This document shows positions 13,358 to 51,352 of a stretch of 64,000 nucleotides of DNA, in pieces. Position numbers and translations under genes: made by a program. The DNA lies in IMG/VR virus record IMGVR_UViG_3300045988_067909. The stretch is one strand, 5' to 3'. How positions within the stretch are numbered: position 1 is the first letter of the stretch; each line of letters opens with the position of its first letter. The stretch comes from a virus. Under the pieces are notes generated by a model that was not told where the DNA came from, did not search any database, and saw only the letters and a list, made by a program, of their open reading frames with translations.

Positions 13358-13630
13358 ATGGAGATTATGAATGCTCCTGTATGGTATATGGTAGCCCTAC
13401 GATACTTTAAATACCAAGAACGTGTAACTGCTAAAAAGAAACAAAAAGAAGATGATATTAAAGCCAAAGCTAAAAAGCAAAGCTTTAATAAGAATAAATA
13501 CACTGGTAGACAGTTACTAGAGATGGATATAGCCAGAGAAAATGGTCACCATATCCCTGGTTTCGAAGGATTAACTAGAGACGAAGCTGATGATCTTAAT
13601 GAACAAATGATGGAAGAAGGTCTCATCTAA
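13358..13630 (+). CDS. Small basic/acidic protein (90 aa) translationally coupled to the radical-SAM gene
   Basis: Its stop overlaps the next gene's start (ATCTAATG). The frame stays open upstream back into the 3' end of the preceding gene. Confidence 0.45.
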   Translation: MEIMNAPVWYMVALRYFKYQERVTAKKKQKEDDIKAKAKKQSFNKNKYTGRQLLEMDIARENGHHIPGFEGLTRDEADDLNEQMMEEGLI

Positions 13631-14694
13631 TGTATACTATACCTAAGAAAGCAATTAATACTTTAGATGATTTTACTCTATCAAACTTAGAATTGATTCT
13701 AAATAAAGACTGTAATATGGCTTGTAGTTATTGCTTCTTATATGGTGATACAAATAGTGGTGAAAGATTCTCCAGATGGGATGACTTATTAGAGATGCTT
13801 AAGAATATAAATATATCTGAAACATTATCTGTTGGGCTAGACTCTGGAGAATTATTTACCCCTGATAGATTACCATTAGTTATGAAAGCTATGAGAGTCT
13901 TAAAAAAAATTACTAGGTATAAAAACACTACAATAGATTGGTGTACTTATAGTAATGGTACTAACTTCGAGCCTATAAGAGATTTCTTAATAGCAACTCA
14001 GGGTGAGAATAGAACCATTAGTGTATCATATGATGGCGAAGATTCATATAGAAGACTTAAGAACAATAAACCATCTAATACATTAGACACTCTTAAGAGA
14101 TTAAGTGAATCTGGATTTGCTAATGATATCATTATCAGATATGCTATTACAGAGAAAGTGTATAATATGAAAGAGACTTTCGATGCTCTATACAAATTAG
14201 GATATAAGAATATTGAATACTATTTTATACGTAATTATAATTCTTATACCATTCCACTAGTTGTGGATACTTTTAGAAAGAGTCTTACTGATACACTTAA
14301 CTATGTAAAAGATACTGATATTGATTTGTATAATCTACATGATTACTATAGCAATCAAAATCCAACCGTTATTTGTAACTATGGTAATATGCTCACTATA
14401 ACACCTAACGGTAAAATGAGTACTTGCTGTGCAGTCTATGAGGGTATCTATGCTGATAATGTAGAAGCTGATCTATTAGAGTATAATCGTATACCTGAAC
14501 TATATAACTCTTTCGAAGCTAACTATATCTATGATAGGTCTAAAAGTGAATGTGCAGTATGTACAAATCAAATGTGTAAAGAATGCTGTTCATATAAAGC
14601 TATTGGAAGAGATAAATATTATAATAAGAGACACCATCAACAGTGTCATATTAGGCATGCTGAACTAGCTGTCTATGATTCTATTTTTAATTGA
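13630..14694 (+). CDS. Radical SAM enzyme with C-terminal SPASM/twitch-like Cys cluster
   Basis: 'CNMACSYCF' (CxxxCxxC) at residues 29-36. 'ITPNGKMSTCC' resembles the SPASM start 'v.pdGdvypC'. 'CAVCTNQMCKECC' Cys cluster. 354 aa, a size typical of anSME-like maturases. Confidence 0.75.
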   Translation: MYTIPKKAINTLDDFTLSNLELILNKDCNMACSYCFLYGDTNSGERFSRWDDLLEMLKNINISETLSVGLDSGELFTPDRLPLVMKAMRVLKKITRYKNTTIDWCTYSNGTNFEPIRDFLIATQGENRTISVSYDGEDSYRRLKNNKPSNTLDTLKRLSESGFANDIIIRYAITEKVYNMKETFDALYKLGYKNIEYYFIRNYNSYTIPLVVDTFRKSLTDTLNYVKDTDIDLYNLHDYYSNQNPTVICNYGNMLTITPNGKMSTCCAVYEGIYADNVEADLLEYNRIPELYNSFEANYIYDRSKSECAVCTNQMCKECCSYKAIGRDKYYNKRHHQQCHIRHAELAVYDSIFN

Positions 14695-14711: not shown

Positions 14712-15035
14712 ATGGACTTACTAGAGTTTTCATCTAAATTTATTATGGGAGAAACAGATGCATTATCTACATTTTGTCGTCTATTTACCGAGAATAATAT
14801 CTTATACTTTATGCTAGCACCATATGGATGTCTTGGTAATAAAATTGTCAAGTCTGACTTATGTGAAGATAGTGTAGCAGTTACTATATTTGGTAATAAA
14901 TCAAATATTAATGCGTTTAAAAGCATTGAAACAGATTACAATGGGAAGGTAATAAATCGCCATAACACGAATATTGCAATTTCCTGTGTATGTCATAAGC
15001 CAACTGAAATACAAATGGTTTTCAGTAGAGTTTAG
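14712..15035 (+). CDS. Hypothetical Cys-containing protein (107 aa)
   Basis: 'cggagacataaATG'. Immediately downstream of the radical-SAM gene. Confidence 0.4.
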   Translation: MDLLEFSSKFIMGETDALSTFCRLFTENNILYFMLAPYGCLGNKIVKSDLCEDSVAVTIFGNKSNINAFKSIETDYNGKVINRHNTNIAISCVCHKPTEIQMVFSRV

Positions 15036-15110
15036 ATGTGTAAATTCCCATAGTCCACATATAGGACTATGGGATTTCTACATATTAATAACTACGGAGG
15101 TTATAAAAAT

Positions 15111-16790
15111 ATGGCAGATAAACTTAGAGGAGATCATTTAGAGGTCTCTTTATTAGATATGGATGACTTCGTAAAGAAGAATAATCTACAACCTATAACG
15201 AATCCTATATTTTTTGATGTGAATGGTAATCCAACTGATGATGGATTACTATCTAATATCATCTTTGGTATTACTAAGCAAACACGTGCTGGTACTTTTG
15301 CTTATATTGATTTACATGGTAGATTCTTAGCACCATTGGTATACAAGATCTGGGGTAAGATTGATCGTAAACTAAAAGAAATTGTTAAAGGTACTAAGTT
15401 CTTTAAAATAGATTCGGATGGTCAATTTGTTGAAGATGAGAATGGTGAAACTGGTTTAGACTTCTTATATAAGAATATAGACAAGGTTAAGTTTAGAGAG
15501 ACTGGTTCTACTAAACGTAGTCGTTTTATTAAGTTCTTAGAACGTAACCGTAAGAACTTCTTCATTACTAAACTATTAATCATTCCACCATACTATCGTG
15601 ACGTTAAAAGTGATGGTGGTAAAGTCTCAGTTGGTGATATTAATAAGCTATACCAAAACGTATTAGTATCAGCTAAGTCTTTAGAAGAATCTAAATACTA
15701 TGGTATTAATATCGGTGATGCTAATAAGGGACGTATACAAGACTTACTATTAGAAATCTATAACTGGTTTGGCTCTGGTACAGAGTCTAATCCTAATGGT
15801 GGTATTCCTGGTAAGTTTGGTGTATTACGTCGTACTAATATTAGTAAGACTACAGACTATGCTACACGTTTAGTTATGTCTTCTCCAAATCTTAAAGTTG
15901 AAAATCTTGAAGATATCGAAGCTAACTTAGAATACTCAGTATTACCAATGACTTCAGCTGCAGCTAACTTCTTCCCATTTGTATTATTCCATATGAGAAG
16001 ATTCTTTGAAGAGCAATTTGCTGGACGTACAGTATACGAATGTATTGGTTCCAAGGGTGAAGTCTTATATCCTAGAATAGATGATTGGCAAACGTATTTC
16101 AATGATCTAGTTCTTAAGAAAGAGTTAGACCGTTTCATTCATGGTTATTCTGATAGATTTAGACCAATAGAAGCACCTATTAGTTCTAAAGAGATGGAAC
16201 GTATTGGTTATAAGGGTAAAACTTTATACATGAAATTTAAAGCACGTTTTAAACGAGTTGAAGATATTGCTGAAGATAAAGATTCTGGTGTAGCAAAAGA
16301 GCTTCAACGTAAACTAACTTGGTGTGATGTAATCTTTATGGCTGCTACAGAAGCTATAAAAGATAAAATGATTCTTATATCACGTTTCCCTATAGATACA
16401 TTCTATAACCAGTTCTCTACTAAATGTAAATTATCATCTACTATTGAAACTGAAAGTATAGAATTTGATGGTAAGTTCTATAAGAACTATCCTAAGATTC
16501 GTGATGAATACATTGGCACTAATACTGCAAATAAGTTTATTGATACAATGAATATCTGTAATGCTTATTTGGAATCTATTGGTGGTGACTATGATGGTGA
16601 TATGGTAACCATCAAAGGCATATTCACAGATGAAGCTAACGCTGAACTTAAAAAGCAACTAGAGTCTAATGTCCATTTTATTGACTTAGGTTGTAAAGCA
16701 GTAATAGCTAATACTAACGAATGTATCCAAGCATTGTTCTCTTTAACTATGACATTAGATGGGGATGTACTTACTGACCCTAAATTTTAA
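15111..16790 (+). CDS. Multisubunit RNA polymerase beta-prime-like subunit, N-terminal half (catalytic DxDGD)
   Basis: 'YIDLHGRFLAPLVYKIW' (beta' 'RMGHIELAAPVAHIWF'). 'LIIPPYYRDVKSDGG..INKLYQNV' (beta' 'LPPDLRPLVPLDGGRF..LNDLYRRV'). 'IGGDYDGDMVT' (NADFDGDQM). ATG at 15111 with a GGAGGT SD; the ORF track starts 42 nt earlier. Confidence 0.8.
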   Translation: MADKLRGDHLEVSLLDMDDFVKKNNLQPITNPIFFDVNGNPTDDGLLSNIIFGITKQTRAGTFAYIDLHGRFLAPLVYKIWGKIDRKLKEIVKGTKFFKIDSDGQFVEDENGETGLDFLYKNIDKVKFRETGSTKRSRFIKFLERNRKNFFITKLLIIPPYYRDVKSDGGKVSVGDINKLYQNVLVSAKSLEESKYYGINIGDANKGRIQDLLLEIYNWFGSGTESNPNGGIPGKFGVLRRTNISKTTDYATRLVMSSPNLKVENLEDIEANLEYSVLPMTSAAANFFPFVLFHMRRFFEEQFAGRTVYECIGSKGEVLYPRIDDWQTYFNDLVLKKELDRFIHGYSDRFRPIEAPISSKEMERIGYKGKTLYMKFKARFKRVEDIAEDKDSGVAKELQRKLTWCDVIFMAATEAIKDKMILISRFPIDTFYNQFSTKCKLSSTIETESIEFDGKFYKNYPKIRDEYIGTNTANKFIDTMNICNAYLESIGGDYDGDMVTIKGIFTDEANAELKKQLESNVHFIDLGCKAVIANTNECIQALFSLTMTLDGDVLTDPKF

Positions 16791-16800
16791 CAAAAGAAAT

Positions 16801-16827
16801 CCCAGTATAGTCAATGACTATACTGGG
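16801..16827. terminator. Bidirectional terminator hairpin 'cccagtatagtc-aat-gactatactggg'
   Basis: 12-bp perfect stem between convergent genes. T-tract 'tatattttac' on the + side. Confidence 0.55.
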
Positions 16828-16833
16828 TATATT

Positions 16834-17193
16834 TTACATTCTTTTACGTTTATTGCCATTGAGTAATCCATTAATTTGTGTAATAGTAGTCTTCTGTACA
16901 TTAATAGCTTTGAAGTATTCTTTATTGATTTCTTCAAACTCTTTACTTCTAGGGTCTAGTATATTCATAAAATTACGGAATAACCCAACAAACGTCACTT
17001 TTGCAGAATATCGTTGGTTTTTAAACCAAGCAGATGTTTTAGCTGATTGATATACATTCATAAGATATTCAAGTTTTTCAAACTTATTATCTTGGCAAGC
17101 TTTCCATCCCTCATTTATAGTCTGAGCATATTCAAACTTGCCACAGTCTGCAATGAAATATATCAAATCGTCTATTCTAGATAAATTTGCCAT
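16834..17193 (-). CDS. Hypothetical protein (119 aa)
   Basis: Balanced amino-acid composition. The overlapping + ORF is hydrophobic junk. Confidence 0.5.
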   Translation of the reverse strand: MANLSRIDDLIYFIADCGKFEYAQTINEGWKACQDNKFEKLEYLMNVYQSAKTSAWFKNQRYSAKVTFVGLFRNFMNILDPRSKEFEEINKEYFKAINVQKTTITQINGLLNGNKRKRM

Positions 17194-17208
17194 GCAACAC
17201 AGTTCCCT

Positions 17209-19272
17209 TTAAATAGTTATAATATTAGTATAGTTTACATTTTCCTTTTCGAATCTAGTTATACCAATAGACTCTAATGGGAAGTTCTTGATATTGGTAT
17301 TGATGATTTCAAAATAATCAGCATAGTCTAATACCCAGCTTGGTAAGTGTTCATCTGCTGGTACTGCAACGGCAAGTATCTCTCCCTTATACGTTGCTCT
17401 ATTATTATCAAAGAACTTAATAAGTCTTTCATATACCGCAGGATTAGACTGCTGTAATTCACCAATGTTTTTCTCTCTAATATTAACTTTAAGTATCTCT
17501 AAATAGTTTCTGCTATCTAAATCTATTGGTTCAGTACCCTCATCACGAATAGCTTCATTATACGCAATAGCTGCTTTAATACCTTGTATTCTCATAGGGT
17601 CTGCATATGAAGATATAGATTTTACAGATACTGGTTTGTAATAGTCTTTCTCTCCAGACTTGATACTATCATGGATATTTTTTTCAATCTTAGCTAGTAA
17701 ACCAATAACTTCTAATTGGTCTACTTCAGGTTTAAGTAATACTTTCTCTCTAAGTATTCCTTGAAGCTCATCTTTAATACTGTCTTTAAATACAGACTTA
17801 TTGATAGGAAGACCTTTAATATCCATTTGCTTATTCTTAGGTACTATATTACCCTCTTGAAGCTCTTGGATTGTAGCGTAGTTCTTCTTAGCTGGTGTAA
17901 GTAATGCACGTTTAAATAAGAACTCATTCTTCATGTCAATAAGACATACCTTGTATGGTGTCAAAGTATTATACTGCTCAGCAATAAGATGGAAATGAGA
18001 TTTAAGAATCTTACTTACGATATAGCATAAGATATTTACACTGGAAATGCGTACTGCATCATAACCCTCGGTAATCTTAGTCTCTTCTTCCACTTCTTCG
18101 ATTTCATCAGTATAGAAGTTGTATAACTCTTTTCTCTCTTTAGTTACAACTTCCTTGAGGTCATTGACTAATGTACAATCATGGTCTACTAAGATATTAT
18201 CTACAAGATGAATCCATTTATCTGTACTAATTACAGAAGAATCTGTATCTGTAAGTAATACGATATCCCTAGTCATAGTAGAGCATCTTTCAAACTTATC
18301 AGATACAATGTATCTCATATAACACCATTCCATAAATATAGTTGTAAGTTTATTTAGACTTTCAACTATATTCTCTGGTGGTTCATTAGGGTTCATAAAT
18401 GGTTCATTAATACCACTAAAGATATTCTTAATTAAGTCTTGTACGTGAGATGAATCAACTACAAGTCTATATAAGTTATTCTTATAGTATATCTTATTAA
18501 GTACTTCTTGAGATTGATACATCAAGATATTCCAAATGATATCACTATACTTACTGAAATGCTCTTCTGTATCATTAACCCATACGCCACAAGACTCTAT
18601 AACTTTCTTATAGACTTCTTCTATAGGTATATCTCTAGACAACTCTAGTTCTCTACTATAGATATGAGATGGTTCTTTAATAATCCTATTCAAGAATACT
18701 ACAGCTTCATCTATATTCTGGAACTTAAGATTATTAGTGAAGATTTGTTCAAATAAACTAATAGCATGAGTAATAAGCATACGACCTGTAGCTGTAGTCC
18801 CTACTGCAACGTATAAGTTATATGATGCTGATGCTGGTGAACCAATATCACCATATGTAGCATTACCATCACGTTTAGCTAATAGCTGTAATAGATTATA
18901 CTTATTAAATTCATCTGAACCCTTAGGGAATTCAAACATCTTCTTCTTATAAGCTTTACGTTTAGTTACATAAGACTCTAATAGTCTGTAGAATGGTGTA
19001 AACCCCTCTTCGTGTTGTTTAAACAAACACCCATTAGGAACTAAGATAGGTTTATCTGTCTCTATCTTATTAACTAAATCAGTTAACTGTAAGTCAACTA
19101 CAATATCTTTATAGTTATTATCTATACGTACATCTGGATTATTAAACTTCCGTTCAATAGCATCTTCAATGAAGAACTGTATTTCATCTATAGTCAATGT
19201 CGGGAACTGCATACGTAATAACGTAGTCATTTCCTCTTTGTATTTCTTAATCACATTCAAATCTAGTTTCAT
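17209..19272 (-). CDS. Family-B DNA polymerase, polymerase-domain (C-terminal) fragment
   Basis: Motif B 'KRDGNATYG' (Kx3NSxYG). Motif C 'VLLTDTDSSV' (YGDTDS). No DxxSLYPS motif A and no exonuclease motifs. AGGAGGT SD. Confidence 0.65.
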   Translation of the reverse strand: MKLDLNVIKKYKEEMTTLLRMQFPTLTIDEIQFFIEDAIERKFNNPDVRIDNNYKDIVVDLQLTDLVNKIETDKPILVPNGCLFKQHEEGFTPFYRLLESYVTKRKAYKKKMFEFPKGSDEFNKYNLLQLLAKRDGNATYGDIGSPASASYNLYVAVGTTATGRMLITHAISLFEQIFTNNLKFQNIDEAVVFLNRIIKEPSHIYSRELELSRDIPIEEVYKKVIESCGVWVNDTEEHFSKYSDIIWNILMYQSQEVLNKIYYKNNLYRLVVDSSHVQDLIKNIFSGINEPFMNPNEPPENIVESLNKLTTIFMEWCYMRYIVSDKFERCSTMTRDIVLLTDTDSSVISTDKWIHLVDNILVDHDCTLVNDLKEVVTKERKELYNFYTDEIEEVEEETKITEGYDAVRISSVNILCYIVSKILKSHFHLIAEQYNTLTPYKVCLIDMKNEFLFKRALLTPAKKNYATIQELQEGNIVPKNKQMDIKGLPINKSVFKDSIKDELQGILREKVLLKPEVDQLEVIGLLAKIEKNIHDSIKSGEKDYYKPVSVKSISSYADPMRIQGIKAAIAYNEAIRDEGTEPIDLDSRNYLEILKVNIREKNIGELQQSNPAVYERLIKFFDNNRATYKGEILAVAVPADEHLPSWVLDYADYFEIINTNIKNFPLESIGITRFEKENVNYTNIITI

Positions 19273-19444
19273 AGCTCATACCTCCTGGTTAGTTTGGTGT
19301 TTTAAGCTATGTATTTTTGTATTTTTAAACCAGATTGCTAGCTATAGCTATAACAATACAGTAATCGTGGTTACCAAAACCATATAAATCCAAGAAAAAT
19401 ATTTTTCTTTTAAATCAATTCTTAATATTAAGGAGGATTATCTC

Positions 19445-19882
19445 ATGTTTTTTGATGACGACATTATGTTAGAAGACGCTCCTGTACTTGAAGATACAGC
19501 ACAAAGCGTAGTTGAAGCTACTGCAGCATCTTACTTGTACACTGAGCTTGCTAAATTGGATGACGAAGCTCGTAAAGAATTCGTTGAATCCGCTGAAGCT
19601 GAAGCTTTATTGGAAAAAGCAGTTCTTAACAAAAAGACTATGGTTCGTTTGTCCCGTCAAGATGATATGGCTCGCCGTGTAAAAATCGCTGCTTATCAAT
19701 TGGCTAAAGACAAAAAAGATCCATTATGGACTAAATTGGTTCTTAACCGTGTTAAAGAACGTCAACTTATTGCTAAGATTGTTCAAAAATACCACAATGC
19801 AGCAGTTAAACTTGCTAAAGTTGGTCAACGTGAATTCATCAAATCCGCATCCAAAGTTAAAGCATTACCTAATAAAAAATAA
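19445..19882 (+). CDS. Abundant small helical protein (145 aa)
   Basis: TAAGGAGG SD, very strong codon bias. Lys/Ala-rich, predicted helical. Confidence 0.6.
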   Translation: MFFDDDIMLEDAPVLEDTAQSVVEATAASYLYTELAKLDDEARKEFVESAEAEALLEKAVLNKKTMVRLSRQDDMARRVKIAAYQLAKDKKDPLWTKLVLNRVKERQLIAKIVQKYHNAAVKLAKVGQREFIKSASKVKALPNKK

Positions 19883-19893
19883 TCACAAAGTAT

Positions 19894-19920
19894 CCACTAT
19901 AGGGCACTGCCCTATAGTGG
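19894..19920 (+). terminator. Terminator hairpin 'ccactataggg-cactg-ccctatagtgg' plus 'gtattttg'
   Basis: 11-bp stem followed by a T-tract. Confidence 0.6.
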
Positions 19921-19944
19921 GTATTTTGCCTATAAAAATCAACA

Positions 19945-19990
19945 ACGTTCCGGACATATAAATGTATATTATAGTAGTAGTAATATACAT
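19945..19990 (+). promoter_or_regulatory. AT-rich promoter-like element with TATAAATG and palindrome 'tgtatattat..ataatataca' upstream of the beta'-C gene
   Basis: 'gacatataaatgtatattatagtagtagtaatatacatgg'. Shares TATAAATGT with the duplicated leaders near 47,000. Confidence 0.35.
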
Positions 19991-20016
19991 GGTTTATTTT
20001 ATAAGGAGGAGCGTTT

Positions 20017-22143
20017 ATGAATAACCTAGCTAATTACGGTATCTATGCTGACTATGTCTTAGGTAAAGATATAGTCATAGACGTAGAAAAAATTAATATA
20101 TATAATTGGGAATCTCACTACCAAAGCATTCTAAATATCCTGAAAGATATGATTGAATCTGAATTAGTGAGAACTAAAAAGATTGGTGTACGGATTGGTG
20201 GTAAAGTTATTAAACTCACATTCGCACACTATATGATTAATATGATCTTCTGGAATATCATCGTTAAAGTCGGTGATACTATTAAACCAGAACACTTATT
20301 CTTCGATAACTGTATTCCTGGTAGAGCTATCGAAAGCTATATTAATAAACTTATCATTGGTCCATATAGAGAAATTATTCCATTGAAGACTTTGAATCAA
20401 GCTATTGCTGATATGATATTCAATATTAGTTTCGTGGACCAATTTGCACCATTCTTCGTTAATAGTGTAAACTTACATGACGAAGTTATGATGCTTAAGA
20501 ATATTCCTGAATATAGAAACCTTATCTATCCTAACTTAGATGAGGTAACTTTATCTGAATCTAAGTCTTATGGTAATAAGTTAATTGATAAGATTCAGGA
20601 TTATGTAAAGAACTCTAAGAAGTATATTGGATATGACCATATCTATGCTAATGCTTTTAGAGCAAAAGAAACTATCAACCTTAAACAGTTGAGAGAGTTT
20701 ATGGGATTCATTGGCGCTAAGCCAGATGGTGAGGGTGGTGTATATCCATACATTATCTCCAATAGCTTTATTACTGGTGGTGTAAATAATAATGTATCCT
20801 ATTTCATTGAATCTGCTGGTGGACGTATTGCCCAAATCTTAGCTAAAGATAACGTTGGTGATGCAGGTTACTTTGCACGTCTTCTTGGTCTATTAGCTCA
20901 AGAAAGTTATCTCCATGAAGATAAGAACTTCAAATGTGATACTCAAAACTTAATACCTATTACGTTTGATAATAAAGTCTTCTTCGATAAGTATATAGAC
21001 AGATGGTGTCGTCTAGAGCCTAATGGTTTTGATGTACTTATTACTGAAGATAGTTGGAAAGACCTCAAGGGTAAAACTGTATATCTATATAGTCCAGCTA
21101 CATGTGCATCTGCTGTACATGGTCATGGTATTTGCTATCGTTGTTATGGTAAGTTAGCTCATACTAATAATAATATCAATATCGGTAAATTCGCTGCAGA
21201 ACTTATCAGTAGAGAGTTTACTCAAGTACTATTATCAGCTAAGCATCTTCTTGAAGTTAAGCTTCAAACTATTGAATGGCCTGCTAAGTTCCAAAAGTAC
21301 TTTACTATCTTTGATAACCGTATTCTTCCTAAAGAAGAAGTAGATTTATCTAAAGTCAAGATTCGTATCTATAAAGATAGTATCTCTGAAGATACTACAG
21401 ATGAAGAATACGATTCTATCCGTGAAGAACGTGAAGATACTGATATCTTAAATGAATATATCGATAAGTTCATGATCATCGATGAAGATGGCGGTGAAGA
21501 AATCGATATAGACCATGTATCCAAGTTCTATCTTGGTGATATCTTTGGTAGAATGGTTAACTCTAGTATTCCTGATGATGATAGTGAGTATTTCGATGTA
21601 CGATTACATGTGGCTAAGAAGAATGCTAAACCATTATTGAATGAAGAAACTCCATTATTCTTTATGCGTATTCAAAATAACGAATTAGCTAAAACAATGG
21701 AACAAGCTCAACGTATTATCAATATTGCAAGTATAACTCCTAAGTTTACATTACCTGAAATCATTACTAAGTTTAACGCTACCATCATCGAGGGTGGTCT
21801 TAATGTAATGAGTGTACATACTGAAGTTATCATTGCTAACTTAGTTAGAGCGGCTGATGATATTATGGGTAAACCTGATTGGTCTTATCCTGAAGCCAAG
21901 TATCAATTACTTGCATTAAGCACAGCATTGAGAGAAAATCCATCATTGATTATCTCTTTAGCTTATGAACGTATTAAAGATACATTGAAGAACCCTAATA
22001 CATTCTTAAAAGAAACCCCATCTTCTATAGATTACTATTACATGCTTAATCCTCAAGAGTTCTTAAACCAAGAAGCTAGAGACTTGTCTATAGATGATAC
22101 TAAGAAAGAAGTCAAGAGCATGTTTGTTAAAGTTGAAGACTAA
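20017..22143 (+). CDS. Multisubunit RNA polymerase beta-prime-like subunit, C-terminal half
   Basis: 'CYRCYGKLAHTNNNINIGKFAAELISREFTQVLLSAKH' aligns to beta' '[35 protein letters not shown]'. AAGGAGG SD. Confidence 0.8.
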   Translation: MNNLANYGIYADYVLGKDIVIDVEKINIYNWESHYQSILNILKDMIESELVRTKKIGVRIGGKVIKLTFAHYMINMIFWNIIVKVGDTIKPEHLFFDNCIPGRAIESYINKLIIGPYREIIPLKTLNQAIADMIFNISFVDQFAPFFVNSVNLHDEVMMLKNIPEYRNLIYPNLDEVTLSESKSYGNKLIDKIQDYVKNSKKYIGYDHIYANAFRAKETINLKQLREFMGFIGAKPDGEGGVYPYIISNSFITGGVNNNVSYFIESAGGRIAQILAKDNVGDAGYFARLLGLLAQESYLHEDKNFKCDTQNLIPITFDNKVFFDKYIDRWCRLEPNGFDVLITEDSWKDLKGKTVYLYSPATCASAVHGHGICYRCYGKLAHTNNNINIGKFAAELISREFTQVLLSAKHLLEVKLQTIEWPAKFQKYFTIFDNRILPKEEVDLSKVKIRIYKDSISEDTTDEEYDSIREEREDTDILNEYIDKFMIIDEDGGEEIDIDHVSKFYLGDIFGRMVNSSIPDDDSEYFDVRLHVAKKNAKPLLNEETPLFFMRIQNNELAKTMEQAQRIINIASITPKFTLPEIITKFNATIIEGGLNVMSVHTEVIIANLVRAADDIMGKPDWSYPEAKYQLLALSTALRENPSLIISLAYERIKDTLKNPNTFLKETPSSIDYYYMLNPQEFLNQEARDLSIDDTKKEVKSMFVKVED

Positions 22144-22200: not shown

Positions 22201-23781
22201 ATGAGAGCTATAATACGAAATACCTGTATAGTAGTTACTGATTATACTCCAGGTAAAGTACCTGGGTTAGAAAAGTACTTTACTATCTTCGATCCTTTGA
22301 CTCATACATATAAATACGTAGGAGTTAGGTTTGACGAAGAGAAGAAACTTATGTATCTCCCTAGAGGGGTTGATACAGGATTTATAGCTAGAACTTTAGG
22401 TGTAGAAATGGAACGTGAGTACAATAGTGATCCATATGAGCAGACTACTATGACCACTATTAAGTATATGCCTAGAGATGATGTACAAAAAGAGGCTTTA
22501 AGATTCATTCTAGCTAAGGGTGAATACATGGCCAATAGTAATAGGACACAGTTATCGGTAAACTTAAATACTGGTGCTGGTAAAACCTATGTAACTATAG
22601 CAGCTATGGCATATTGGAATATAAAGATATGCGTAATTGCCTCAAATAAGGCATGGTTAGAACAGTGGCAAAACTGTGTAGCAGAATATACCAATACCGA
22701 CATTAGGGAGGTACTGATAATCACTGGTGCAGCTGCTATACACAAGATTCTTAAAGGATTTACCGACCTATCTAAGTATAAAGCATTCATGGTAACTCAT
22801 TCTACACTAAAGAACTTTGGTGAACGATTTGGATGGGATTCTATAGGTGAACTATTCAAGAAGCTTAATGTATATATGAAAGTATTCGATGAAGCACATC
22901 TTAACTTTGAGAATATTGCTAGTATAGACTATGCTACAAATACAAAGAAGACTTTATATCTTACAGCTACACCTATACGGAGTAATAGTGATGAGAATAC
23001 TATCTATAAACTATACTTTAAGAATGTACCTAAGATAGACTTGTTTGATGCTGATAATGATCCACATACAAGATACCATGCTATACTGTATAATAGCAGA
23101 CCGACTCCACAGATGAGAGCTAACTGTTATAATTACATGTATGGCTTAGACCGTAATAAATATATGAACTCATTAGTCAATACTGAAGAGTTTAGAAAGA
23201 TTATGCTTGTTATGATGGATAAGATTCTTCGTATAGGCGGTAAAGTCTTAGTATATATTGGGACTAACCAAGCTATTGAAGAGATTAAAGTCTGGATAGA
23301 AGAGAACTATCCAGAGTATCGTGGTGATGTGGGTATATTTACATCCACATATACACAAGCAGAGAAGCAAGTTGCACTATCTAAGACTATCATTCTCTCT
23401 ACAACTAAGTCAGCTGGCGCTGCTTTAGATATACGTGGTCTTAAGGCTACATTTGTATTAAATGAACCATTTAAGTCTGAAGTATTAGCTAGACAAACCC
23501 TAGGCAGAACTAGAAATGATGATACTGACTATATTGAGTTTGTAGATACAGGATTTACATCTACTAGACAGTATTATAGAGCTAAGAAACCTATATTTAA
23601 GAAATATGCTTCAGATTGTAAAGAAATCCAACTAGATTTCAATACATTGAATAATAAAGCTGAAGAACTTGAGTTAATTCGTGAGAATGTAAAAGCTCAA
23701 TATGAAGCAAAACGTATGTTTATAGACTATCGAGATACATTCGATATAAATAGCGTATATAAGAAAGATAAAGACAAATAA
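22201..23781 (+). CDS. SF2 DEAH-box helicase
   Basis: Walker A 'NTGAGKTY'. Motif II 'FDEAH'. Motif III 'LTATP'. Motif VI 'QTLGRTRN'. Confidence 0.75.
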   Translation: MRAIIRNTCIVVTDYTPGKVPGLEKYFTIFDPLTHTYKYVGVRFDEEKKLMYLPRGVDTGFIARTLGVEMEREYNSDPYEQTTMTTIKYMPRDDVQKEALRFILAKGEYMANSNRTQLSVNLNTGAGKTYVTIAAMAYWNIKICVIASNKAWLEQWQNCVAEYTNTDIREVLIITGAAAIHKILKGFTDLSKYKAFMVTHSTLKNFGERFGWDSIGELFKKLNVYMKVFDEAHLNFENIASIDYATNTKKTLYLTATPIRSNSDENTIYKLYFKNVPKIDLFDADNDPHTRYHAILYNSRPTPQMRANCYNYMYGLDRNKYMNSLVNTEEFRKIMLVMMDKILRIGGKVLVYIGTNQAIEEIKVWIEENYPEYRGDVGIFTSTYTQAEKQVALSKTIILSTTKSAGAALDIRGLKATFVLNEPFKSEVLARQTLGRTRNDDTDYIEFVDTGFTSTRQYYRAKKPIFKKYASDCKEIQLDFNTLNNKAEELELIRENVKAQYEAKRMFIDYRDTFDINSVYKKDKDK

Positions 23782-23813: not shown

Positions 23814-23904
23814 TTTTTGTTATCTAAGACTTTTTCAATTGTATACTATATTGGTAATAGTGATTATGTATATTTATTTTAATTTCCACAAGGAGGGACC
23901 TATC

Positions 23905-24708
23905 ATGAGAACTATTAATTTTAGAACAGACGCTTCCCGTTACGATGTTGCAGATTTATCCTTAGCAACTGGTCTTACCATTAGTGAGTTAATGATTAAT
24001 GCAGATAAGCATTATGAAAAAACTTGCAAGGCCTTAATGAAAAAGGTCGTTACTAAAGACTTAGCGAAGGAAATCTTCAAAAACATCAAAAAAGGAAAAC
24101 TTACCAATATCCACGATATTGGTAATGCATTCTATGTAATGGGTGCACTTAGTTCCAAACCAAAGAAAGATAAGCTATTAGTAATTAAAGATTTACTAGT
24201 AAAATATCTTTCCATCTATTACAATAAACGTACTGATAAATACGGTATTGTAAAAGATGAGGACATCGCAGCGTTGCTCGATGTCTGTGGTGAAACCAAA
24301 ATTGTAGTAGCTAAGAAAGCTAAAACTAATAACAATGATGGTGAAGCCAAAAAACAACACACAGTATCCGATACAACAAAAGCTTATAATAAATTAAATA
24401 AGCTAATCAACTTAAAATCTATTAAAAAAGATGTAGTTGATGTATTGGTGAAAACTGTGAATAAGGATGCATATAAACGCATCCAAACCCAAGCTGATAG
24501 TCTTGGTAAAGATCAAAGATTCTTCTTCAATAAGAAGGAGTCTGATCTTAAAAATGGTGTTTTGATTCTTCAAGGTCTTAATGACGCTGGTGAACGTTTC
24601 AATATTAAATTGGAACTCCCTAAAGCTAATAAACCAGCGAAGAAACAAGAACAACCAAAACAAGAAACAGCTACAGTAGAAACAGAATCTACAGAAGCTT
24701 CTGCATAA
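23905..24708 (+). CDS. Abundant protein with Lys-rich C-terminus (267 aa)
   Basis: AAGGAGGG SD before the internal ATG (M36 of the listed ORF). Codon-biased. Confidence 0.55.
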   Translation: MRTINFRTDASRYDVADLSLATGLTISELMINADKHYEKTCKALMKKVVTKDLAKEIFKNIKKGKLTNIHDIGNAFYVMGALSSKPKKDKLLVIKDLLVKYLSIYYNKRTDKYGIVKDEDIAALLDVCGETKIVVAKKAKTNNNDGEAKKQHTVSDTTKAYNKLNKLINLKSIKKDVVDVLVKTVNKDAYKRIQTQADSLGKDQRFFFNKKESDLKNGVLILQGLNDAGERFNIKLELPKANKPAKKQEQPKQETATVETESTEASA

Positions 24709-39320: not shown

Positions 39321-40964
39321 ATGCAAGCATCTGAGAAACTAAAAGATTACAGAATGTCGATGTTTACCAAACTACCATTTGAGGTCGAAAGTAAAGTACT
39401 AGACCCAAATAAGTTAACTATGGAGGTGATAAAACCGCACTTATTTGTAAAAGGCAGTAATAATATTCCTTTGGTGGATCGATGGGATCCACTACCAGAA
39501 GATGAAATTGTAAAGAAAATACCTTCCGCTTTATATATGCCTATAGCTGAGAAGTTAGGACAAGATCCAGAATTAAACGTGCATCTGGATATCTTTAACC
39601 TAAAATCTAAACGAGGCTATAGCATACCTAAGGCTAATTTTGACATGCAGGAGCACTTTTGTAAGTATATCAATTACTTTGAAAAGTTCTATGACCCTGA
39701 ACATGAGTTATTAGCAGCATATGCATACATCAAAGCAACTATGGATGCATACCCGCAATATAACAAAGCCAATCTAGAATGGGATATCAGACGATTAATC
39801 CTGGATTCTAATATTGGTAAGAAAGTTAAAGAAATGAATGATGCTAACTGTGTATTAGAGCTTCGTTCATTTGATGGTGAAGGACGTAATATTGTATTAA
39901 ACTATAATAACCAACACGTCCATGCTATGATGGAAGTAAGTTTATTCCAAGTTATACTTATTCCATTATTAACACACTTTGCATTTCATAGACAAGTAGC
40001 GAATATTGATGAGTTCTTAATCTACTTCTACAATATTCTTCTTCGTGAAATGCATCCAGAAATGGATTTGGTTAACAAGTTATATCAAACAGTAATGAAT
40101 GGTGTAATGGTTAACTATAAACGGAATACTAAGTTATGGGTTAAGTTGGAGATTGCAGCTGTAGGTGTACATGAACAAGCAGCCAATATCTTAAACAATG
40201 TAATCATTCAGTTATTCCCAAAATACACTTACATCAGAAACGTAGTTCACTTTAACCATACTAGTATCGAACAAACATTGAGCTTTAAGATAGTAGATGG
40301 TAAGTATGATTATGTCTTCAATAGATTTAATCATGATAAACGTGATGATGAAAGCAGTAGTGACTTAGATATCTTTGAAGCTCATATGAGTAAAAGAAAT
40401 GAGTCATTGCTATTACATAACCAAGTTAACTATGAACGGGTTATGGAAACTATTGATAATGAGTTTGGTCCATTTGACCCTGAAGAAATAGCTTATTATC
40501 AAAAAGAGTTATCTAAAGATGCAGTATCTCCAGTAAATGAGCTACAACGGGAATTAGTTAGCTATCTATTCTTAAGATACTTTGGAGATCCATCTGCATT
40601 AAAGTCATTGACTCTAACTGGTTATATAAAACTTATTATAGCTAGTAGAAAAATATTATGCGAAAAGGGCCTATATACGATGGCAGCTATTCTATCTGGT
40701 AAAGTAGTTAAACGTGTAAATCGTAACTCAGTAAATAAGAAAGAATCTACTAAGATTCAATCTTCTCCTGAGTATAGAAAGCTTATTGACAGATATAAGA
40801 GCGAGAAAACCGAGAACTATATTATGGCTCTTTTAGCTACTATCCTATCATCTAAGTTTACATGTATTGATTATCATAATCAAGAGAACACTGGTGCACC
40901 TATCATGTCTAACTCTGATGTAATCAATGATGAGTTCTTACGTTATGTATTGATGATTGGATAG
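39321..40964 (+). CDS. Hypothetical protein (547 aa)
   Basis: AGGGAGG SD. Confidence 0.55.
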   Translation: MQASEKLKDYRMSMFTKLPFEVESKVLDPNKLTMEVIKPHLFVKGSNNIPLVDRWDPLPEDEIVKKIPSALYMPIAEKLGQDPELNVHLDIFNLKSKRGYSIPKANFDMQEHFCKYINYFEKFYDPEHELLAAYAYIKATMDAYPQYNKANLEWDIRRLILDSNIGKKVKEMNDANCVLELRSFDGEGRNIVLNYNNQHVHAMMEVSLFQVILIPLLTHFAFHRQVANIDEFLIYFYNILLREMHPEMDLVNKLYQTVMNGVMVNYKRNTKLWVKLEIAAVGVHEQAANILNNVIIQLFPKYTYIRNVVHFNHTSIEQTLSFKIVDGKYDYVFNRFNHDKRDDESSSDLDIFEAHMSKRNESLLLHNQVNYERVMETIDNEFGPFDPEEIAYYQKELSKDAVSPVNELQRELVSYLFLRYFGDPSALKSLTLTGYIKLIIASRKILCEKGLYTMAAILSGKVVKRVNRNSVNKKESTKIQSSPEYRKLIDRYKSEKTENYIMALLATILSSKFTCIDYHNQENTGAPIMSNSDVINDEFLRYVLMIG

Positions 40965-50741: not shown

Positions 50742-51185
50742 TTACTTAATAAATATAGACGTTGGCTCTGCATCATTGATACAGTCTAAAATATCTTCAT
50801 AATAACCGTCTTCTTCGGCATACATTCTAGCGAGTTCCATACGTTCTTTATATGTACAACATTTCTCCTCAGGGGTTCTCATAGCTTCTTCATCACCACA
50901 GTTATAGTGTTTACCAGGTCCGATTAAAGATAATAGCTCATCCACAAGAACAGCATTCTCCAAAAGATCTTTTCTTAGCTTCTTAACGATTCTACTTGAA
51001 TAATAAGTTTTACCATCTTGGTCAATAAGAACTTCACCTGGTTTAGCTGGTCTAAAGTTTGTCTTCTCTACCTGATTAACTTTGATGCTTTCATCAATAA
51101 CTACATAGTTCCCTAAGTAAGACATATCATAAGATTCATTATAGCCCGTAATAATCTCGTTAGTATCGTAATCATAGCTGCTCAT
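50742..51185 (-). CDS. Hypothetical Cys-containing protein (147 aa)
   Basis: ATG at 51185 with 'aaaggaagaggt' upstream. The listed ORF began at a TTG. Confidence 0.5.
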   Translation of the reverse strand: MSSYDYDTNEIITGYNESYDMSYLGNYVVIDESIKVNQVEKTNFRPAKPGEVLIDQDGKTYYSSRIVKKLRKDLLENAVLVDELLSLIGPGKHYNCGDEEAMRTPEEKCCTYKERMELARMYAEEDGYYEDILDCINDAEPTSIFIK

Positions 51186-51352
51186 AGTGGTTACCTCTTC
51201 CTTTAATTGATGTCTAATAAACAAAACTTTGGAGGGAGAGTTAACTCTAATGAGTTATCAGCTAGACTCTTATCTCTTATTCATAGTTATAGTATACAAT
51301 TAAAGATATCTTTGAAACATCTCTATAATCCTATAAAGAAAGGAGACTGAGA

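Follow-up and report, generated by a model that had tools for sequence, protein, structure and literature searches.

Two genes that lie 3.2 kb apart on one strand of a 64,000-nucleotide stretch of virus DNA (IMG/VR virus record IMGVR_UViG_3300045988_067909; the window) encode proteins resembling the N- and C-terminal portions of the β′ subunit of a multisubunit RNA polymerase (RNAP), and the question raised by this locus is whether the two products are halves of one enzyme or pieces of two. The genes are open reading frame (ORF) A, at positions 15111–16790 (+ strand, 559 amino acids, aa), and ORF-B, at 20017–22143 (+ strand, 708 aa). phiKZ-like systems have two sigma-independent multisubunit RNAPs, with β′ split after the double-psi β-barrel (DPBB) (PMC8287921, PMC7598289); one is the virion RNAP (vRNAP) and the other the non-virion RNAP (nvRNAP). 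A sequence-only reading of the window had taken ORF-A and ORF-B for the halves of a single β′ and had held that virion and non-virion polymerases could not be told apart here. Family scores and anchoring to phage AR9 do tell them apart, and one of each is present: with a probability of about 0.9, ORF-A is the N-terminal β′ piece of the vRNAP and ORF-B is the C-terminal β′ piece of the nvRNAP of a two-RNAP jumbo phage of the AR9/phiKZ type.

The distinction is drawn by four paralogue families of PHROGs, which were anchored by scanning AR9 proteins annotated in RefSeq as virion or non-virion RNAP subunits. The AR9 nvRNAP comprises gp089, gp154, gp270, and gp226, and the vRNAP comprises gp078, gp125, gp145, gp189, and gp264 (PMC5312081); gp105, annotated in RefSeq as a non-virion RNAP subunit, was added to the nvRNAP set. 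Among the N-terminal pieces, the AR9 vRNAP protein falls in phrog_2986 (2e-113) and the nvRNAP protein gp270 in phrog_2987 (9e-94). Among the C-terminal pieces, the vRNAP protein gp264 falls in phrog_2962 (3e-112) and the nvRNAP protein gp154 in phrog_3015 (9e-145). ORF-A matches phrog_2986 with an E-value of 2.8e-76 and 257.8 bits over profile positions 8–535 of 539, and the paralogous nvRNAP family, phrog_2987, with only 23.8 bits (E 3.3e-5). ORF-B matches phrog_3015 with an E-value of 4.3e-51 and 175.1 bits over profile positions 33–637 of 653, and the virion C-piece family, phrog_2962, with only 28 bits (E 1.8e-6). Taken with the AR9 anchoring, these scores make ORF-A a virion-type N-terminal piece and ORF-B a non-virion-type C-terminal piece. 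The earlier assignment of ORF-A to the N-terminal and ORF-B to the C-terminal part of β′ is thereby upheld, and their union in one subunit is not.

Both genes are intact, and the motifs quoted for them earlier are all present. The longest ORF at the ORF-A locus opens at 15069. However, the ATG at 15111 is preceded, at a distance of 8 nucleotides, by a GGAGG ribosome-binding site (RBS), and gene callers in six assemblies also place the start at 15111, which gives a protein of 559 aa. ORF-A contains YIDLHGRFLAPLVYKIW, LLIIPPYYRDVKSDGG, and GGDYDGDM, the last of which, the DxDGD Mg-binding motif of the β′ DPBB, is found ~65 residues before the stop codon. The protein comprises a clamp/lid region and a DPBB, together with the DYDGD Mg-binding motif, but no N-terminal Zn finger. 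The common β′ split site is after the DPBB carrying NADFDGD (PMC7598289).

ORF-A has no match in Pfam-A, and PHROGs and the PDB were needed to place it. In tblastn searches of the AR9 RNAP loci, ORF-A matches only the vRNAP β′ N-piece gene, in three exons (E 5e-53, 4e-6, and 1e-4), and has no match to gp270. Comparison with AR9 gp270 and gp154 had been proposed for the two ORFs; the pairing of ORF-B with gp154 holds, and ORF-A is of the gp145 type rather than the gp270 type. Used alone or as a small family profile, ORF-A retrieves neither AR9 gp270 nor phiKZ gp55 from the PDB; the profile of nvRNAP β′ N pieces retrieves gp270 at 1e-162 and gp55 at 1e-47. The only PDB matches of ORF-A are to bacterial β′, cyanobacterial γ chains among them, through ORF-A residues ~130–265, and residues 136–277 align to bacterial β′ 219–380. 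Matches in cultured phages are annotated as “viral RNA polymerase beta-prime” in Staphylococcus phages and as “virion-associated” in OBP, DT01, and Moabite, and ORF-A matches one place in each of ~80 Pseudomonas phage genomes. Fusion of the two halves in the closest relatives had been raised as a possibility; the best 120 of 1,887 ORF-A homologues are all 531–573 aa long, so that no fusion of ORF-A with an ORF-B-type piece exists among these relatives. By these family and locus comparisons, ORF-A is assigned as the vRNAP β′ N-terminal piece of the AR9 gp145 type.

Similar to ORF-A, ORF-B has no match in Pfam-A. Its motifs are GICYRCYGK...ELISREFTQVLLSAKHLLE, and the segments FKC...WCR...ATCAS..GICYRCYGK and LLSAKHLLE, within ORF-B residues 209–404, align with gp154 and with bacterial β′ 698–906. 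ORF-B is accordingly predicted to carry the bridge-helix region, a Zn-binding cysteine cluster (C..C..CYRC), and the start of the trigger loop (SAKH). The Zn site of phiKZ gp74 corresponds to this cysteine cluster (PMC8287921). In phmmer searches of the PDB, ORF-B residues 129–669 align to residues 122–625 of chain 7S00_D of the AR9 nvRNAP (E 1.9e-38), a chain that we identify with gp154 from its length of 631 aa. The alignment runs beyond the conserved core, with ORF-B residues ~410–669 paired with gp154 ~400–625, the nvRNAP-specific C-terminal domain; this domain of nvRNAP β′ C pieces is absent from cellular β′ and from the virion C piece (PMC7824862), and gp264 on the virion side stops just past the conserved core, at a length of only 401 aa. 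In tblastn searches of the AR9 RNAP loci, ORF-B matches only gp154 (2e-41). Its matches in Staphylococcus phages, at one place per genome, are annotated as “non-viral RNA polymerase beta-prime”, and ORF-B itself is 95–100% identical on 19 IMG/VR loci. A match to phiKZ gp74 was sought as well, and phmmer against the PDB returned no phiKZ chain at E ≤ 1, which weakens only the link of ORF-B to the phiKZ branch and not the AR9-type assignment. ORF-B is thus assigned as the nvRNAP β′ C-terminal piece of the AR9 gp154 type.

If ORF-B belongs to an nvRNAP, an N-terminal partner of the gp270 type is expected elsewhere in the genome, and such a gene is present. A 514-aa ORF is located at 190759–192303 of IMGVR_UViG_3300007186_000004 (267353 bp), ~120 kb from ORF-B; this contig has ORF-B at 100% identity (68526–70649) and an exact 52-nucleotide match to the first 52 nucleotides of ORF-A. 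The 514-aa protein has an N-terminal Zn finger (RCECGHYTG...CPYCN), INRNPT, and the canonical NADFDGD, and it matches phrog_2987 (1.5e-63), AR9 gp270 (7S00_d, 6e-40), and phiKZ gp55 (7OGP_A, 3e-15), with cyanobacterial γ chains among its PDB matches. The gene is found at 97–100% identity in other contigs of the phage and of its 95–96% variants, ~117–120 kb from ORF-B. It was found by a degenerate two-motif DNA pattern fitted to the codon usage of the phage (CGT for 54% of Arg); a pattern with the AGA Arg codon missed it. A word-indexed protein search with AR9 gp270 gave 125 matches, none from this phage; a locus search with an alignment of nvRNAP β′ N pieces did not place the phage in the best 80 of at least 600 matches; and scans for close relatives with proteins of loci L084 and L053 retrieved other co-occurring phages. 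The nvRNAP β′ is accordingly predicted to consist of the 514-aa piece and ORF-B. Since the Zn finger sits on the nvRNAP N-terminal piece, the lack of an obvious one in ORF-A, which had been remarked on before, is explained, and the AR9 virion-type N piece is likewise without such a cysteine motif.

Two side observations concern the surroundings of this gene. Upstream of the nvRNAP β′ N-piece gene in IMGVR_UViG_3300008275_000006 (L288:96–3461) is a 1121-aa ORF rich in Gly/Ala/Ser/Asn/Thr repeats, which by eye looks trimeric-autotransporter- or adhesin-like with an SLH-like C terminus, an unusual cargo beside a core transcription gene. In L084-like phages, a match of 526 aa to the nvRNAP β′ N piece is spread over ~2.0 kb.

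Gene fusions indicate what kind of piece ORF-A is paired with. A motif scan of public metagenomes yielded ORFs of 929 aa in three contigs (L351, which is OEIL01000004.1, 245,591 bp; L427; and L431), and partial ones in L362 and L390. Residues 1–517 of the 929-aa ORF match ORF-A (28.6% identity, E 4e-72), and residues 521–921 match AR9 gp264 (E 3e-64); in PHROGs, phrog_2986 covers 1–515 and phrog_2962 covers 535–923. ORF-B and gp154 match the 929-aa ORF only over the universally conserved core of ~150 residues (E 1e-12). This in-frame fusion of phrog_2986 to phrog_2962 points to gp264-type pieces, rather than ORF-B-type ones, as the working partners of ORF-A-type proteins. The 929-aa ORFs appear to be unsplit virion β′ subunits, comprising N-terminal and middle pieces, of some metagenomic jumbo phages; reviews describe the virion β′ as split in the phages that they cover. 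As a separate observation, several relatives have the C-terminal motif of the virion β′ C piece, within long loci, only on an ORF of 139–163 aa. These short ORFs and the aforementioned ~2.0-kb matches (loci L374, L403, L401, L375, and L407; L127 and L131–L139) suggest intron or homing-endonuclease insertions as in the AR9 RNAP genes; the RNAP genes of the present phage are uninterrupted.

Against this background the proposal of one split β′ subunit of a single phage RNAP, with ORF-A as its N-terminal and ORF-B as its C-terminal half, can be weighed. The two proteins do cover complementary parts of bacterial β′, their genes share a strand with 3.2 kb between them, and the inspected parts of the genome contain no gp264-type partner for ORF-A. 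However, each ORF scores ~150–230 bits better on the family of a different enzyme, the canonical N-terminal partner of ORF-B is located elsewhere on the same contig, and relatives fuse ORF-A-type pieces to gp264-type rather than ORF-B-type pieces. The same adjacency is also observed in AR9, where gp154 and gp270 belong to the nvRNAP and gp145 to the vRNAP (PMC5312081). Distances of 19–57 kb separate the two β′ genes in the Staphylococcus, Listeria, and Yersinia relatives, so that the 3.2-kb spacing is a lineage-specific synteny and not a functional unit. A single split β′ is therefore very unlikely, and the proximity of ORF-A and ORF-B is one of synteny, not partnership: as in AR9, the vRNAP β′ N-piece gene happens to adjoin a conserved module.

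Several points nevertheless weigh against assigning the two ORFs to two enzymes. A gp264-type gene was not found in the fetched loci, in which ~105 kb of the ~267-kb genome was inspected, and neither the nvRNAP β pieces nor the vRNAP β C-terminal piece was located in those ~105 kb. The gp264-type gene adjoins the nvRNAP β′ N-piece gene in 95 of 448 loci (a count in which unrelated regions are included), and no gp264-type gene is present within ~6 kb of the 514-aa gene in this phage. Packaging of the ORF-A product and the composition of both enzymes are predicted by orthology, at 26–32% identity to cultured phages, and no early or late promoter motif was established upstream of ORF-A or ORF-B. 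The phiKZ proteins gp178, gp80, and gp74 are set beside the present proteins by description only.

With regard to the gp264-type piece, a metagenome-wide scan with a gp264 motif gave 120 loci, none overlapping the phage at high identity, and the position beside the 514-aa gene is occupied by the 1121-aa repeat protein and three small ORFs. Were the separate gp264-type piece lost in this lineage, ORF-A would need another C-terminal module, for example an ORF-B shared by both polymerases, and the neighboring ORF-A and ORF-B would be functional partners after all; this loss and sharing must be rated lower still than a single split β′. It was also observed that a vRNAP piece adjoining an nvRNAP piece recurs at two separate loci.

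Decay of one or both genes, as pseudogene remnants of a lost second polymerase in a phage with one functional RNAP, is scarcely credible. Pseudomonas phage PN05, a group 1 jumbo phage, is reported to have possibly a single β′ cognate (PMC7824862), and only part of the RNAP subunits have been located in the present phage. On the other hand, both ORFs are full length on their profiles (8–535 of 539 and 33–637 of 653), keep their catalytic and Zn motifs, and have strong RBSs, and accessory subunits of both enzymes are present (gp125 type and gp226 type). Conservation is likewise that of maintained genes: in independent assemblies ORF-B is identical and ORF-A has the same length and position, ORF-B is 95–100% identical on the 19 IMG/VR loci, and ORF-A relatives at 62–88% identity have the same length. 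Mis-assembly of two phages, which the metagenomic origin and the co-occurrence of several related jumbo phages in the samples could suggest and which had been raised earlier as an assembly error, can practically be dismissed, because gene order and gene lengths are identical in six independent ENA metagenome assemblies by different assemblers (contigs of 260–332 kb), IMG/VR contigs up to 267 kb show the same order in the ORF-A/ORF-B region, the module order recurs in cultured AR9, and the window is uniform in GC content (~33%).

For the two-enzyme assignment, the steps of a mechanism can be taken from AR9 and phiKZ (PMC5312081, PMC7598289, PMC8287921). The vRNAP would be synthesized late and packaged, would enter the next host cell together with the injected DNA, and would then transcribe the early genes. 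Its β′ would be composed of ORF-A, supplying the catalytic DYDGD Mg site, a gp264-type middle piece, and a gp125-type C-terminal piece, and would act together with β-like pieces. The nvRNAP would be produced from early or continuously expressed genes and would transcribe the late genes, those of the vRNAP included. This enzyme would be composed of the 514-aa N-terminal piece, ORF-B, two β pieces, and the gp226-like subunit, with the bridge helix, Zn site, and trigger loop contributed by ORF-B. What is observed are the family assignments, the presence of an ORF-B partner at a known position, and the fusion of ORF-A-type to gp264-type pieces in relatives; virion packaging, expression timing, and physical assembly would follow if the orthologues behave as in AR9 and phiKZ.

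Additional RNAP genes are found in and around the window. The 547-aa ORF at 39321–40964 (+) has no PHROG, Pfam, or single-sequence PDB (phmmer) match, but a profile of its family (A2; 40 diverse homologues) matches 7S01_A over almost its full length (E 6.8e-65). In the AR9 nvRNAP holoenzyme, 7S01_A is a 464-aa chain labeled “DNA-directed RNA polymerase subunit”, and it is taken to be gp226 from its equal length and from an hhalign comparison with the gp226 gene product; the 547-aa ORF aligns to AR9 gp226 with an hhalign probability of 99.9. At least 410 members represent the family at the 50%-identity level, and the gene order GroEL, hypothetical gene, 547-aa gene, other genes, and primase is as in AR9. 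The 547-aa protein is predicted to be the fifth, promoter-specificity subunit of the nvRNAP, the same enzyme as that of ORF-B. Approximately 5 kb to the left of the window (L196:16636–17376), a 246-aa gene of the gp125 type (phrog_2926, 1e-27) encodes what is probably the most C-terminal virion β′ piece, and ~3.4 kb to the right (L198:992–5329) a 1445-aa vRNAP β-like subunit is encoded (phrog_3148, 4e-134; AR9 gp189, 3e-55). Within the window itself, no β-subunit gene and no further RNAP gene was revealed by PHROG scans, which covered most ORFs of 130 aa or more, or by tblastn against the AR9 RNAP loci, which covered every ORF of 90 aa or more. The absence of β fragments from the window and the placement of the remaining subunits outside it had both been anticipated, and the 514-aa gene ~120 kb away and the gp125-type and 1445-aa genes in the flanks bear this out. 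In all, five or six of the ~10 expected RNAP genes have been located.

The gap between ORF-A and ORF-B is 3226 bp long and holds ORFs of 119, 687, and 145 aa. The 687-aa gene (17209–19272, − strand) matches PF20286 (divDNApol, 1.9e-34), PF00136 (2.3e-10), and phrog_2927 (3.9e-64), contains motifs B (KRDGNATYG) and C (DTDS) of family-B DNA polymerases (PolB), and aligns end to end (query 6–686) with the AR9 “DNA polymerase type-B catalytic domain” gene at 125147–127072 (E 9e-69). The end-to-end match and the PolB motifs make it an intact subunit gene, and neither the DNA-polymerase fragment that it had been called nor a part of an RNAP; its product is predicted to be the full-length catalytic (C-terminal) subunit of a split, divergent PolB. 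The exonuclease half of AR9 (108407–110071) has no homologue among the window ORFs by tblastn. AR9/phiKZ-type phages have, among their core features, a divergent PolB that is split or lacks its exonuclease (PMC7598289, PMC7824862). The 119-aa ORF (16834–17193, −), downstream of the polymerase gene, is called in the six assemblies and has no Pfam or PHROG match, and no function is assigned to it. The 145-aa ORF (19445–19882, +) encodes a small putative virion protein that matches phrog_26909 (“virion structural protein”, 1.5e-5) and weakly, by tblastn, AR9 127281–127526 (E 1e-3), and it corresponds in position to an AR9 gene (127260–127559). A Pfam match of this ORF to Rpb5_C (E 0.027, below threshold) was dismissed as chance.

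Directly downstream of ORF-B, a 526-aa superfamily 2 (SF2) helicase of the ResIII/DEAD/SNF2-like kind is encoded at 22201–23781 (+), with matches to PF04851 (5.9e-14), PF00270, and PF00176 and an AR9 homologue in the same relative position (130430–131863, E 1e-54). An SF2 helicase is linked to the β′ C-piece gene in group 1 jumbo phages (PMC7824862). The module composed of the polB catalytic half (−), the small virion protein (+), the nvRNAP β′ C piece (+), and the SF2 helicase (+) is thus common to the window and AR9. On the other side, just upstream of ORF-A, a radical-SAM-domain protein is encoded at window positions 13630–14694 (+; PF04055, 8e-7; phrog_1802, 5e-19).

Both ORF-A and ORF-B have strong RBSs. 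Between a 107-aa ORF and ORF-A, at 14990–15075, a perfect 10-bp hairpin (CCCATAGTCC..GGACTATGGG) is followed by ATTTCT and looks like an intrinsic terminator; ORF-A may therefore have its own promoter in the 40 nucleotides before its RBS. In the promoter analysis no repeated k-mer stood out. Exact copies of TGTATAYTATA, which resembles the AT-rich core of AR9 early promoters, are found at 19963–19973 (upstream of ORF-B), 23840–23850 (upstream of the gene at 23905), 51288–51298 (−; upstream of the gene at 50742), and 13631–13641 (start of the gene at 13630). With one mismatch allowed, this sequence is not enriched (19 matches versus 16.6 expected from shuffles).

The phage is an uncultured jumbo phage of the AR9/phiKZ group with a genome of ~260–267 kb and a GC content of 33%, and its assignment to phages that encode their own sigma-independent, split multisubunit RNAPs, made earlier from the window, is borne out by the AR9-anchored families and by synteny with AR9. 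Megablast of the window against 50,697 cultured-phage records gave no match; the hosts of its closest cultured relatives, which share only ~30% identity with it, are Staphylococcus, Listeria, and Bacillus. In public data the phage turns up very often, and the 246-aa protein encoded at 969–1709 is indexed there in 1214 assembly blocks. Many contigs come from IMG samples 7000000xxx and 33000062xx–33000087xx, which we take to be human-microbiome samples, and at least four other related jumbo phages co-occur there.

The present assignment bears on the annotation of such genomes. In AR9/phiKZ-type phages, neighboring β′-like genes are not safely partners, since two paralogous sets exist and their pieces are interleaved; an annotation that joined ORF-A and ORF-B in a single split subunit would get both enzymes wrong. 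The analysis adds to the two-RNAP group a ~265-kb jumbo phage that is uncultured, abundant, and probably human-associated, and identifies a gp226-type subunit that PHROGs and single-sequence searches missed. The relatives with an unsplit virion β′ are relevant to the question of whether the splits are labile or date back to an ancestor. None of these results alters the accepted view of how phage RNAPs work, and the layout is a known and ordinary one for the AR9/phiKZ phage group.

The system most similar to that of the window is found in AR9/PBS1 (Takahashivirus), which has the same two paralogue families, represented by the vRNAP β′ N piece (gp145; RefSeq BI022_gp144) and by gp154 (PDB 7S00, 7S01, 7UM0, and 7UM1). 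In AR9, the vRNAP β′ N-piece gene is also a few kb from the polB/β′ C-piece module, the gp226-type subunit is encoded between GroEL and primase, as in the window, and a gp125-type piece is encoded in the region from terminase to tail sheath, as in the present phage. The two phages differ in several respects. Their proteins are only 26–28% identical, and ORF-B is ~75 residues longer than gp154. The AR9 vRNAP β′ N-piece gene is on the opposite strand and has two group I introns, whereas that of the present phage is intron-less. AR9 has an extra gene between the β′ C-piece gene and the helicase gene that the present phage is without. The AR9 gp125 gene is immediately upstream of the sheath gene, whereas its counterpart is upstream of a 719-aa ORF and the tail-tube gene. 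Finally, 3.4 kb separates gp264 from gp270 in AR9, whereas no gp264-type gene is present within ~6 kb of the gp270-type gene here.

Staphylococcus phages S6, SA1, MarsHill, and Madawaska and Listeria phage LPJP1 provide the best cultured matches (31–32% identity for ORF-A and 26–27% for ORF-B). In these Staphylococcus and Listeria jumbo phages the two β′ genes are 19–51 kb apart, and the 3.2-kb proximity is therefore not general. The RNAPs of phiKZ (vRNAP gp178, gp149, gp180, and gp80; nvRNAP gp55, gp71–73, gp74, gp123, and gp68; PDB 7OGP) represent the same overall system, but phiKZ is much more distantly related and has another gene order. A further comparison is offered by the split β′ of cyanobacteria and plastids (γ/RpoC1 and β′/RpoC2), in which the split is at the same position (PMC7598289). 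No α, ω, or sigma homologues are expected in phage RNAPs (PMC7598289). The cyanobacterial and plastid halves are encoded by adjacent genes and belong to one cellular enzyme with α, ω, and sigma, whereas the neighboring pieces in the phage belong to different enzymes.

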